From: Pinctada imbricata
Taxonomy: Eukaryota
Length of the DNA: 64,000 nucleotides
Assembly (NCBI GenBank): GCA_033119305.1
Contig: VSWD01000008.1
Location: 62,196,347-62,260,346, forward strand
Direction of reading: 5' to 3'
A program made the translations under genes and the position numbers. Positions 42,690 to 47,885 of this stretch are shown here, in pieces (within the stretch, counting starts at the first letter, position 1; each line of letters opens with the position of its first letter). Below the pieces are notes generated by a model that saw nothing but the letters and a program-made list of their open reading frames with translations, was not told the origin of the DNA and made no database searches.

Positions 42690-42918
42690 CAAAACACAAT
42701 CACAATACCATCGAAACACAATTACTGTACCATAAATACACAATTACAGTACCATCAATACACCATTACAGTATCATTAAAACACCATTACAGTACCATC
42801 AATACACTATCACAGTACCATCAATACACACTTATAGTACCATCAATACACAATCACACAATGCACAATTACAGTGCCATCAATACACCATCACAGTACC
42901 ATCAATATACAATTAAAT
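42690..42918 (+). repeat. 22-bp minisatellite of about 10 units (ACCATCAATACACCATCACAGT); this is the left flank of the nested satellite element.
   Basis: Direct. Same unit as 45225-47885. Confidence 0.9.
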
Positions 42919-42930
42919 CAAATGTTTTTC

Positions 42931-45225
42931 AGAAAAAAAAAACAGATGTCTCCCCCCTCCCTCTAAGTTACTTTGACCTTGGGCCAAGAAGATGTGAAAC
43001 CTTTGAGTCATGGGCAACATCATACTCAAACATGAAAGTGATTCATTGTATTGTTTGAGGTAAAGCCCAAACATGATTAGCATATACAATTTCATATTTA
43101 GTGAAATTGACTTTGGTCACATGACCTTGGATATAGGTGATCTGAAAAATACATTGTATGGATCATGTGCAACAAAAAACTGAATTAGTGATTGGATACA
43201 CAATTCAAAATATAAAGCCTAAACATGATAAGCATAACAATTTCAGCCTGGACATGATTAGCATATACAATTTCATTACCAAAGTAAGAAGTGACCTTAA
43301 TCATGTGACCTTGGGACAATGCGATAAGAAACATTTAGTCCTGAGAAACAACGTATCAAAATATGAAAACAATTGTAAGAAGGGTTCAGCAGATATAGCC
43401 CAGACAAGATTAGTACGTACAATTTCATTAAAAAGAACTAAATGATCTTGACCTTGGGCACATGACCTTGGGTCAAGATGATAAGAACCTTCCAATCCTG
43501 AGCAACAGCATTCTAAAGTATCGGAGCAATCCAGTATACGATTCCACAGATATAGTCCAGACTCAATAGTATTTACAATTTCATTAAAAATGTAATATTT
43601 GACCTTGACCTTAGTAATATGACCTTGGATCAAGGTGGTGTGAAACCTTTGGGTCATCAGCACCATCATACTAAAATATCAAATGATCCGATTACAGTTC
43701 AAAAGACAAGTATTAGCTTTTACAAAAAGCTTGCCGGCAGTTAGCTTGTAAAATACTAGTAAGAAAAAATTGGAATAAACGATTTTTGTTCTTGTTGACC
43801 AATCGCACATTTCCGGGCTTTTCCGTTTTTATTTCCGATTCAAGCTACGGAAATTTCCGAGGATCTGTGATTGTTGTAGGACGTATCGGTACAAAGACTT
43901 TTCGATGCATCTTTCGGATGAAAATGCACTGATACGATATGACTTTCATTTGTCAAGTCATCTAGACTCTTGAGCCGACCTGATGAAAGTATCTTATGCA
44001 CAGATTCTGAATAATCTTGACGAATATTTGCATATTTTGTAATTGTCCACCAGTCATATTGCCAAGAGTTATTTTATCCGTGCAAGTATGTCACGATTGA
44101 TTACAGTATACCGGCAGTCATGACTGCCGGTAATTAAGCCTGGACATAATACACATAACAAATACAATTTCATTTAAAATACATGTATACTAATTGACCT
44201 TGGTCACATGATCTTGGGTCAACGTGATGTGAAACCTTCGGGTCATAAGCAACAACATACTAAAATATAAAGCGCTCGTGCAAACGGTTCAAGAGATATA
44301 GCCCGAACAGGAATGCATGTACAATTTCATTTAAATTGTACTACATGACCTTGACCTTGGTCACATGACCTTGGGTCAAGGTGATGCAAAACCTTCGGGT
44401 CATAAGCAACAACATACTAAAATATGAAAGTGATCCGGCAAACGGTTCAAGAGATCTAGCCTGGACATGAATGTATGCATAATTCAAGAGATATAGCCCG
44501 AACAGGAATGCATGTACAATTTCATTTAAATTGTACTACATGACCTTGACCTTGGTCACATGACCTTGGGTCAAGGTGATGCAAAACCTTTGGGTCATAA
44601 GCAAAAACATACTAAAACATGAAAGTGATCCGGCAAAGGGTTCAAGAGATATAGCCCGGACAGGAATGTATTCATAATTTCATTAAACATGCAGTAAGTG
44701 ACCTTGACCTTGGTCACATGACCTTGGGTCAAGGTGATGTGAAATCTTTGGGTCGTAAGCAACAACATACTAAAATATGAAAGTGATCCGGCAAACGGTT
44801 CAAGAGATATAGCCCGGACAGGAATGTATTCATAATTTCTTTAAAAATGCACTAAGTGACCTTGACCTTGGTCACATGACCTTGGGTCAAGGTGATGTGA
44901 AACCTTCGGGTCATAAGCAACAACATACTAAAATATGAAAGTGATCGGACAAACGGTTCAAGAGATATAGCCCGGACAGGAATGTATGTATAATTTCATT
45001 AAAAATGCACTAAGTGACCTTGACCTTGGTCACATGACCTTGGGTCAAGGTGATGTGAAACCTTCGGGTCATAAGCAACAACATACTAAAATATGAAAGT
45101 GATCGGGCAAACCGTTCAGGAGATATAGCCCGGACACGATGTGTGACGGACAGACAGACAGACAGACGGACGACGAAGGCAAAACCAATATGTCTCCTCC
45201 CCGTTGGGGGGGGGGGGAGACATAA
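42931..45225 (-). mobile_element. Helentron/pearl-like non-autonomous element carrying a ~166-bp satellite, lying inside the 22-bp minisatellite. The structure (read on the minus strand) is: a terminal hairpin ATGTCTCC-(C)n…-GGAGACAT (45189-45224), (GACA)n at 45146-45172, ≥6 clean ~166-bp monomers (44150-45140), a unique ~400-bp segment with a perfect 22-bp palindrome ACCGGCAGTCATGACTGCCGGT (44109-44130), and about 4 degenerate monomers (43040-43720). The other end lies at ATGTCTCCCCCC (42945-42956).
   Basis: Direct. The monomer is tgaccttgaccttggtcacatgaccttgggtcaaggtgatgtgaaaccttcgggtcataagcaacaacatactaaaatatgaaagtgatccggcaaacggttcaagagatatagcccggacagg…. Its hairpin / GACA-microsatellite / ~166-bp-tandem-core layout matches published descriptions of oyster pearl/CvA and Cg170-carrying Helentron-N elements (established knowledge, recalled without sequence verification). 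Confidence 0.6.
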
Positions 45226-47885
45226 TTACAGTATCATCAATCCACCATCACAGTATCATCAATACACCATCACAGTATCATCAAAACACCATCACAGTAC
45301 AATCAATACACCATTACAGTACCATCAAAAAACCATCACATACCATCAATACACCATCACAGTACCATCAATACACCACCACAGTATCATCAATTCGACA
45401 TCAGAGTACCATCAATACGCAATTACAGTATCATCAATACACCATCACAGTACCATAAATACACAATTACAGTATCATCAATACACCATCACAGTACCAT
45501 CAATACACAATTAGAGTATCACCAAAACCCAATAACAGTACCATAAATACACAATTACAGTATCATCAATACACAATACAGTATCATCAATACACAATAA
45601 CAGTACCATCAATACACCATTACAGTATCATCAAAACACCATTACAGTACCATCAATACACAATTACAGTACCATCAATACACAATCACACAATGCACAT
45701 TTACAGTACCATCAATACACCATCACAGTACCATCAATACACAATCAGAGTATCATCAATACACCATCACAGTATCATCAATAGACCATCACAGTATCAT
45801 CAAAACACCATCACAGTATTATCAATACACCATTACAGTACCATCAAAAAACCATCACATACCATCAATAAACCATCACAGTACCATCAATACACCACCA
45901 CAGTATCATCAATTCACCATCAGAGTATCATCAATACACCATCGCAGTCCCATCAATACACCATTACAGTATCATTAATACACCACTCCCGTACCATAAA
46001 TACACAATTACAGTATCATCAATACACCATCACAGTACCATCAATACACAATTACAGTATCATCAAAACACAATTACAGTATCATCAATACGCCATCACA
46101 GTACCATAAAAACACAGTATCATCAATACACCATCACAGTACAATCAATACACAATTACAGTATCATCAATACACCATCACAGTACCATAAATACACAAT
46201 TACAGTATCATCAATACACAATACATTACCATCAACACAATTACAGTGTCATCAAAACACAATTACAGTATAATCAATACACCATCACATTACAATCAAT
46301 ACACCATTACAGAATCATCAATACACATTTACAGTATCATCAATGCGCCATCACAGTGCCATAAATACACAATTACAGCACCATCAATACACAATTACAG
46401 TATCAACAATACGCCATCACAGTACCATCAATACACCATCATAGTATCATCAATACACAATTCAAAACACCATCACAGTACCATCAATACACAATCACAG
46501 TAACATCAATACACCATCACAGTACCATCTATACACCATTAAAGTACCATCAATACACCATTCAAAACACCATCACAGTACCATCAATACACCATGACAA
46601 TACCATCAATACACCATCAAAGTACCATCAATATACCATTCAAACACCATCACAGTATCATCAATACACAATCACAGTACCATCAATACACCATCACAGT
46701 ACCATCAATACACCATCAAAGTACCATCAATCCACCATTCAAAACACCATCACAGAACCATCAATACACAATTACAGTATCATCAGTACACAATCACAGT
46801 ACCATCAAACACCATTACAGTATCATCAATACACAATCACAGTGACACCAATACACCATCAAACACAATAACAGTATCATCAATACACCATCACAGTGAC
46901 ACCAATACAGCGTCATAGTACCATCAATACACAAGGACAGTATGACTAAAACACCATCACAGTATCATCAATATACCAACATAGTATCATAAATGCTCCA
47001 TGAAAGTGTAATCAATACACCATTGCAGTATAATTGATACACCATCTAGTACCACAATCACAGTATCATCAATACGACATAACAATACCATCAATAACCA
47101 ATCACAGTACCATCAATACAGAATCACAGTGCCATCAATACACCACAACAGTGTCTTCAATACAACATCAGTTTCATTAAAAAAACTCGTCACAGTATCA
47201 TCAATACAATGTCTCAGTATCATCAATACACCATCACAGTGTCATAAAAAAACTATTAGAGTGTCATCAATACACAATCACAGTGTCATCAATACACCAT
47301 TACAGTATCATCAATACACCATTACAGTATCATCAATACACCATTACAGTAACATCAGTACACAATCATAGTGTTATCAATAACCCATAAATACACCATC
47401 AAAACAGCATTACAGTAACATCAATAGTTCAATACACGATCACAGTATCATAAATACACCATCACAGTATCATAAATACACCATCACGATGGCACCAATA
47501 CACCATCACAGTATCATGAATACACCATCACAATGACATCAATACACCACCACAGTATCATATATAAACCATCACAGTATCATAAATACACCATCACAAT
47601 GGCATCAATACACCATCACAGTATCATAAATACACCATCACAATGACATCAATACACCATCACAGTATCATAAATACACCATCACAATGGCATCAATACA
47701 CCACCACAGTATCATAAATACACCATCAAGGTATCATAAATACACCATCACAATGGCATCAATACACCATCACAGTATCATAAATACACCATCAAGGTAT
47801 CATAAATACACCATCACAATGGCATCAATACACCATCACAGTATTATAAATACACCATCACACTAGCATCAATACATCATCAAAG
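45225..47885 (+). repeat. 22-bp minisatellite of about 120 units with variants such as ACCATCAATACACAATTACAGT and ATCATAAATACACCATCACAAT; ~2.7 kb.
   Basis: Direct. It generates the artefactual ORFs at 45143-47371 (HQYTITVPSIH… repeats). Confidence 0.95.

Follow-up and report, generated by a model that had tools for sequence, protein, structure and literature searches.

A probable Helentron-derived element carrying a 158-bp tandem array, inserted into a pre-existing 22-bp minisatellite of Pinctada imbricata

We analyzed a stretch of 64,000 nucleotides from Pinctada imbricata (assembly GCA_033119305.1, contig VSWD01000008.1, forward-strand positions 62,196,347 to 62,260,346), referred to here as the window and numbered from its first letter, and observe that a 22-bp minisatellite in it is interrupted by a 2.3-kb block (42916-45223) that reads on the minus strand and was inserted into an array that already existed. 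The block is very probably a HINE, of the kind that carries tandem repeats and goes by the names pearl, DTC84, and Cg_HINE among bivalves and DINE-1 in Drosophila. Helentrons are rolling-circle DNA transposons, and HINEs are their non-autonomous derivatives. The block contains a tandem array of 158-bp monomers, one of which is itself interrupted by a 427-bp segment carrying a perfect palindrome.

An earlier model-made reading of the letters (the original prediction) had placed the 22-bp minisatellite on both sides of the 2.3-kb element, and this is confirmed by Tandem Repeats Finder as well as by wrap-around (cyclic) alignment. Tandem Repeats Finder reports 10.8 copies at 42686-42915 on the left and ~121 copies at 45228-47890 on the right, the latter in rows of period 22, 44, and 66, and cyclic alignment to the 22-bp unit of the original prediction gives 87-88% identity for left and right blocks alike. 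The differences between the left and right consensus are confined to the polymorphic positions 2, 14, and 17, and no further occurrence of the minisatellite is found in the window outside the two blocks. The edge of the left array is sharp, and that of the right array decays gradually, with degenerate units extending to ~48040. Furthermore, the minisatellite carries a tandem higher-order duplication of ~522 bp, marked by variant units of 37 bp and 20 bp, with the HINE lodged in copy one of this duplication (42686-42915 plus 45229-45519, versus 45520-46061 for the second). Inverted repeats bracketing the entire minisatellite were looked for and none were found, and the minisatellite as a whole was therefore rejected as part of a larger transposon.

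Comparison of the unit phase across the insertion, a check suggested together with the original prediction, shows that the left block stops at unit position 18 and that the right block, from 45224, begins at position 14 (AATTACAGT…). The phase is thus continuous across the block, with AATTA on both sides, and the two flanks belong to the same subfamily. Because no allele or orthologue was obtained, we used the tandem copy at 45520-46061 as a paralogous empty site, and in it we find the uninterrupted array. With one AATTA between them, the two flanks match this paralog at 88% identity over 543 bp and need no gap at the junction, and dropping exactly 5 bases at the joined junction gives the best alignment score. 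Ungapped identity over 120 bp on either side of the equivalent junction (between 45747 and 45748) is 92% on the left and 96% on the right, the left minisatellite block being paralogous to 45520-45747. In addition, the 37-bp unit (CAATACACAATCACACAATGCACAATTACAGT, left) and the 20-bp unit (right) are common to flanks and paralog, in identical order and spacing, and the expected uninterrupted sequence at the insertion site reads …CAATTACAGT…. The continuous phase, the alignment of the flanks to an intact paralog without any gap, and the shared 37-bp and 20-bp units together show that the element inserted into an existing 22-bp array, as originally proposed. The ~522-bp tandem duplication was already present in the minisatellite before the insertion, leaving one of its copies as an internal empty site.

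The anatomy of the inserted block is that of an element with its 5' end on the right. Its minus-strand termini are (TAATT)ATGTCTCC … TTTGATT(TAATT), corresponding to AATCAAATG … GGAGACAT on the plus strand, and each junction has TT (AA on the plus strand), as does the paralogous empty site. The subterminal repeats (ATGTCTCCCCCC / TTACCGGCAGT) form an inverted pair of 16 nt (42946-42961 versus 45208-45223) that is complementary at 15 positions, a match reached by none of 50,000 shuffles of the end regions. The 5' hairpin has 14-nt arms (45189-45202 and 45211-45224) that are 93% complementary and enclose an 8-nt loop (folding free energy, dG, −11 kcal/mol; z −3.5). With this inverted pair and this hairpin, ATGTCTCC and the adjoining poly-C/G, described earlier as marks of the element ends, prove to be real, and the (GACA)n tract was recovered at 45144-45171. 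The left boundary needs revision: it had been set at 42945, and the actual start is 42916. The 30 nt before the left ATGTCTCC are the 3' stem-loop and tail of the element. This stem-loop (42923-42944) is weak, with a perfect 7-bp stem in which all pairs but one are A/T (dG −3.7 kcal/mol, z −1.7). The subterminal repeats are placed asymmetrically, the 5' one 0-5 nt and the 3' one 46-51 nt from the end, with the ends set by the minisatellite junctions. The element is without coding capacity: its longest open reading frame (ORF) has 122 aa, the ORFs of the element and of the nested insert have no credible Pfam domain match, and searches of the element for tRNA genes and Rfam matches returned none.

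Between these ends lie ~11.7 monomers, all in the same orientation (42962-45139). Their period, originally given as 166 bp, is 158 bp, with one 195-bp copy that results from a 37-bp partial duplication (44446-44482) and is the source of the 195-bp period reported by Tandem Repeats Finder. A second partial intra-monomer duplication, of 29 bp, is found at 43216-43275. Stop codons occur in each of the six reading frames of the consensus monomer. Monomers m1-m5 adjoin the right flank of the element and m7-m11 its left flank, and the 427-bp segment lies at the border of these two homogeneity groups. Either the copies close to the left flank were amplified late, or the insertion of the segment blocked homogenization.

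With respect to the 427-bp segment, we observe that monomer m6 stops after about position 9 (TTCAAAAGA, to 43706) and restarts at about position 13 (AGCCTGGACA, from 44138). Because the monomer is broken and then resumed, 43707-44133 was inserted into an array that had been continuous and is not cargo, and the earlier suggestion of a nested insertion is upheld by this in-phase interruption of a single monomer. The segment is single-copy in the window. The palindrome ACCGGCAGTCATGACTGCCGGT is indeed perfect, although it lies one base to the right of its original placement, at 44110-44131, and with the flanking T and A it becomes a 24-bp palindrome (44109-44132; dG −11.5, z −5.1) made up of a terminal arm and its immediate complement. 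At the other end of the segment, the arm at 43731-43741 is complementary to the 5' arm at 10 of 11 positions, which 40 of 200,000 shuffles of that end match (p ~2e-4). The arms read TTRCCGGCAGT, the 5' arm is preceded by TAAT, and the junctions are without duplication. The segment is probably a second, short HINE-like element, and its palindrome is best read as the 5' terminal hairpin of an element that would likewise be of Helentron type. A role in rolling-circle replication, as first imagined, holds in spirit and not in detail: if the segment is a nested element, that role would apply to its terminal hairpin. Under either reading, nested element or spacer, the palindrome is no origin inside the large element. 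Two other interpretations of the segment's borders were rejected. An exact 9-bp direct repeat GATTACAGT (43690-43698 and 44099-44107), considered as a target-site duplication, is off the monomer phase, and ~0.4 such matches are expected by chance. A miniature inverted-repeat transposable element (MITE) with terminal inverted repeats spanning 43731-44133 has no flanking duplication and leaves 24 nt unexplained.

The assignment of 42916-45223 to the HINEs is one that we hold with high confidence because its modules stand in the published HINE order, with matching asymmetry, TT/AA junctions, and no coding content, and because three further left ends of this type lie in the window. Several observations weigh against it. 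AATTA is found twice, once at each junction, and Helentrons and HINEs reportedly integrate without a target-site duplication; both 3' stem-loops are A/T-rich, and shuffled sequences fold as well in 18 of 200 cases for the large element and in 43 of 200 for the nested one; the nested element is devoid of microsatellite and repeats, its recognition resting on a hairpin, an 11-nt arm, and a weak stem-loop; and a single copy of each element is available, so that a multicopy family is putative and the exact termini are provisional. AATTA could belong to the element terminus, with TT/AA as expected for the family and the remaining 3-4 nt a chance match or microhomology. A genuine 5-bp target-site duplication, produced by a staggered cut or by microhomology-guided repair, seems unlikely to us, and we retain it because a single AATTA rebuilds the array exactly and, without a duplication, 3-4 nt of an element terminus would have to match the flank by chance; if true, this HINE-type family would depart from the duplication-free insertion reported for Helentrons, with relevance for the still unsettled integration mechanism of Helentrons that encode an endonuclease. 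Even less probable is that the whole block is a cut-and-paste MITE, moved by a DDE transposase whose staggered cut left AATTA as a 5-bp duplication. Such an origin would account for AATTA at both junctions and for the restoration of the array by exactly one copy, as well as for the 16-nt inverted repeat near the ends, and in the older literature pearl and DTC84 were placed among the MITEs and credited with a short, putative target-site duplication. However, the inverted repeats are asymmetric, the left one (on the plus strand) lying 30-35 nt inside the junction with a stem-loop beyond it, which is a hallmark of HINEs, and the module of hairpin, (GTCY)n, and ~160-bp array has since been reassigned to Helentrons. 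Moreover, the junctions of the nested element are without duplication, and TT/AA ends with a 3-nt chance match would mimic one. A cut-and-paste MITE has repeats at both extreme termini and a duplication of fixed length; here one repeat is internal, and the 5-bp duplication is present at the focal element and absent at the nested one.

The HINE reading of the nested segment faces a stronger competitor, which we regard as possible though doubtful: that the 427 bp are not mobile and represent either a spacer between the arrays of a composite HINE, comparable to Cg_HINE_10_13, or a captured host fragment in which the palindrome is incidental. In about 5% of Cg_HINE_10_13 elements the two arrays are separated by anonymous DNA of up to 1.2 kb, and the arrays flanking 43707-44133 differ in homogeneity; in addition, the occurrence of the segment once in the window, the absence of the palindrome pattern from the JGI metagenome contigs scanned, and the lack of significance of the nested 3' stem-loop fit this explanation. 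A spacer is harder to reconcile with a monomer that is broken at one point and resumes within ~3 nt of phase, and with 11-nt arms that are complementary between the segment's two ends. The hairpin at one end and the arm with stem-loop at the other resemble the host element and also elements reported from the oyster genome, which have a subterminal repeat and complementary repeat without a microsatellite, and we therefore prefer a nested HINE-like element. For the large element, we also considered that the minisatellite belongs to it or was captured or transduced by it, or that the arrangement stems from rearrangement or misassembly. Helitron-type elements can transduce flanking DNA, and the locus is represented by a single haplotype in a repeat-rich region of the kind that is easily misassembled. 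Yet the joined flanks match, in phase and base for base, a stretch that is intact 300 bp further right and includes both rare units, those of 37 bp and 20 bp; the positions of the junctions agree with the subterminal repeats and tail of the element, and the array as a whole lacks bracketing inverted repeats. We consider this explanation extremely improbable, and the capture by the minisatellite offered as an alternative in the original prediction finds no support, as the joined flanks reconstitute the uninterrupted paralog.

From the anatomy we infer how a HINE may have come to lie in this array. An autonomous Helentron would presumably have supplied the Rep/helicase(-endonuclease) protein that mobilized the element in trans. 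Going by what is described for the family, the element would have been recognized through its 5' hairpin, its 3' stem-loop, and its two subterminal inverted repeats. Integration would have taken place at a TT/AA dinucleotide within the existing 22-bp minisatellite with its ~522-bp duplication. The 158-bp array would be cargo typical of the family, and the proposed order of its growth makes the copies nearest the left flank the youngest. A 427-bp element of like architecture, without microsatellite or tandem repeats, would have arrived later, in m6. A host function for either element is unlikely.

Searches for relatives of the two elements gave negative results within their respective scopes. 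The core of the 158-bp monomer has no match in exact-pattern scans of JGI metagenome contigs, IMG/VR, and GTDB genomes, and the 22-bp palindrome has none in the scan of JGI metagenome contigs. A protein word search with the monomer-long ORF was empty, a full-text search of papers for monomer strings returned chance matches only, and exact-product look-ups of two nearby ORFs found no allelic contigs. No Rep/helicase ORF is present in the window.

The window contains further traces of related sequences (Table 1). We find 21 matches to (GTCY)n tracts where 0.07 are expected, in four clusters that each lie just downstream of a strong hairpin; besides the focal element, these mark three further HINE-type left ends, with a hairpin followed by (GTCY)n, at 13461-13538, 25688-25711, and 35895-35990. 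The left flank of the first aligns with that of the focal element, the only one of the three ends to do so, and since no tandem array follows, this end is truncated or array-less. The GTCY-type microsatellite at 25688-25711 follows the amplified hairpin array after a spacer of ~70 bp, within an intron of a polyamine oxidase gene, and 24513-25711 has the appearance of a tandemly amplified hairpin from the left flank of a HINE. The element at 35895-37500 holds 7.5 copies of a 167-bp monomer (36051-37298) that is unrelated to the 158-bp monomer; no matching 3' subterminal repeat was found for it within 2 mismatches, and it is probably truncated or decayed. Four hairpin-adjacent (GTCY)n sites in a single window indicate that the genome hosts several HINE-type families.

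Table 1. Coordinates of the minisatellite, the large and the probable nested element, and related features in the window (strand given where assigned; rc, reverse complement)
Feature	Position	Strand	Remarks
22-bp minisatellite, left block	42686-42915		~10.5 units; ends at unit position 18 (…CAATTA)
AATTA, left copy	42911-42915		best gapless fit to paralog requires exactly one copy
3' end of element: tail and A/T stem-loop (TGTTTTT / AAAAACA, 42923-42944)	42916-42945	−	position fits HINE 3' palindrome
3' subterminal inverted repeat GGGAGGGGGGAGACAT	42946-42961	−	16 nt, 94% complementary to 5' repeat
Monomers m1-m5 and first 9 nt of m6, diverged	42962-43706	−	70-85% identical to reference monomer
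Nested short HINE-like element (probable), 427 bp	43707-44133	−	interrupts m6 between positions ~9 and 13
Nested element, 3' tail	43707-43714	−	8 nt
Nested element, stem-loop AGCTTTT-TGT-AAAAGCT	43715-43731	−	7-bp stem, weak (dG −5, z −0.7)
Nested element, 3' subterminal inverted repeat	43731-43741	−	
Nested element, unique interior	43742-44108	−	
Nested element, complementary inverted repeat	44109-44120	−	
Nested element, 5' subterminal inverted repeat	44121-44133	−	
Rest of m6, homogeneous m7-m11, truncated m12	44134-45139	−	m7-m11 88-97% identical to reference monomer
(GTCY)n microsatellite of left flank	45144-45171	−	follows the 5' hairpin after a short spacer; exact GTCY x4 matches; plus strand reads GACA/GACG
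5' hairpin	45189-45224	−	5' subterminal inverted repeat and complementary inverted repeat
Complementary inverted repeat (…GGGGAGGAGACAT)	rc 45190-45202	−	4-8 nt downstream of 5' subterminal repeat
5' subterminal inverted repeat ATGTCTCCCCCC…	rc 45208-45223	−	
AATTA, right copy	45224-45228		minisatellite unit positions 14-18, or part of the element's 5' terminus
22-bp minisatellite, right block	45224-47890		~121 units
Uninterrupted paralog of insertion site	45520-46061		tandem copy of ~522 bp; junction equivalent between 45747 and 45748
Isolated HINE-type left end	13461-13538	+	TTTTT/ATGCCCCC-loop-GGGGGCAT hairpin (dG −13.2, z −7.1), then GTCC GTCT GTTT…
Amplified hairpin array	24513-25620		40-bp unit with hairpin ATGCCCCTGAAGGCAT, 26 copies, 442-bp higher-order period
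HINE-like element	35895-37500	+	hairpin AGCTCAACTGGTC-aaa-GACCAGTCGAGCT, GTCC/GTCT microsatellite (35895-35990), then array

Two genes were recognized on the plus strand of the window. A spermine/polyamine oxidase is represented by an exon at 14628-15356 (Amino_oxidase domain) and by a second exon at ~26170-26290 that reads RWGNNPYTRGSYSF…; an exon of this gene matches an ENA metagenome contig at 89% and sequences of Lingula, Dreissena, and Bulinus at 51-53%. The matching contig from a related species has only the exon in common, with no synteny in the flanks. A MAP-kinase-phosphatase-like gene has a rhodanese exon at 50111-50659 and a DSPc exon at 61665-62108, and the focal locus lies ~2-5 kb upstream of the first coding exon of this dual-specificity phosphatase gene. 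A long interspersed nuclear element (LINE) fragment with a zf-RVT domain is located on the minus strand at 10718-11785, and protein matches to a LINE-like ORF are limited to two. Further minisatellites occur at 410-1004 (46-bp unit) and at 54242-55329 (45-bp unit, with a 322-bp higher-order period and 97% identity).

Nested repeat DNA of this kind is ordinary in invertebrate genomes and has little importance beyond annotation. The locus nevertheless illustrates clearly how elements derived from Helentrons bring satellite-like arrays to new positions, in this case into another tandem array ~5 kb upstream of the phosphatase gene, and how such elements become nested in one another. Thanks to the paralogous empty site within the array, the ends of the element are placed with a precision that is unusual for a single copy, and they could aid the curation of this repeat family should the genome be annotated. 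The locus is also likely to be a hotspot of structural variation and to be hard to assemble.

Canonical Helitrons have 5'-TC and CTRR-3' termini, insert between A and T, and lack inverted repeats. The element described here is presumed to belong to their rolling-circle superfamily and resembles them in its weak hairpin toward the 3' end and in the existence of non-coding, non-autonomous derivatives, but it has neither the 5'-TC nor the 3'-CTRR terminus, does not sit at an A^T target, and possesses subterminal inverted repeats, and a canonical Helitron was therefore rejected. The agreement is closer with the DINE-1/HINE families of Drosophila, mite, and mosquito and with autonomous Helentrons. 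Thomas et al. 2014 (PMC4067079) describe HINEs whose subterminal repeats of 12-15 bp lie 2-4 nt from the end on the 5' side and 38-60 nt from it on the 3' side; these HINEs also have microsatellites or tandem repeats and a palindrome on the 3' side, and they insert at TT without modifying the target site. Taken over HINEs in general, the pair of subterminal repeats measures ~11-15 bp, and in the DINE-1 and Cg_HINE types the repeat complementary to the 5' one lies 1-22 nt away from it, giving a 5' hairpin. The 12-15-bp subterminal repeats with a complementary repeat by the 5' one, the microsatellite, the central repeats, the 3' stem-loop (weak here), the distances from repeat to end, and the TT target are all in line with our element; the conserved DINE-1 core sequence is absent here, and no Helentron encoding Rep/helicase(/endonuclease), with which an interspersed multicopy HINE family shares its termini, was identified as an autonomous partner.

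Among bivalve elements, pearl of Crassostrea virginica and DTC84 of Donax trunculus (PMC3879986) likewise have core repeats of ~160 bp joined at one end to a tetranucleotide microsatellite and an inverted motif (at least ~11 bp) that lies at the very terminus in one flank and subterminally in the other, with AA at the ends. Compared by description, the microsatellites differ, being GACA/GACG (GTCY) here and ACGG in pearl and DTC84, and in contrast to DTC84 our array shows no ordered set of monomer variants, its homogeneity declining from one end to the other. The Cg_HINEs of Crassostrea gigas (Vojvoda Zeljko et al. 2020; PMC7492417), which carry GTCY-type microsatellites and satellite-like monomers of 140-180 bp and frequently insert into repeats, provide a further comparison. 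The 158-bp monomer falls outside their 13 published clusters (138, 147, and 162-181 bp) when compared by length, not by sequence; there are ~11.7 monomers here versus an average of 3-5; and AATTA is doubled here, in contrast to Cg_HINE, which showed no target-site duplication. Despite these differences, the element follows the Cg_HINE plan (PMC7492417) from one end to the other, with a 5' subterminal inverted repeat, its complementary inverted repeat, a GTCY microsatellite, an array of monomers in fixed orientation, a 3' subterminal inverted repeat, and a putative palindrome, and it shares with Cg_HINEs the TT sites, the non-coding nature, and the insertion into other repeats.

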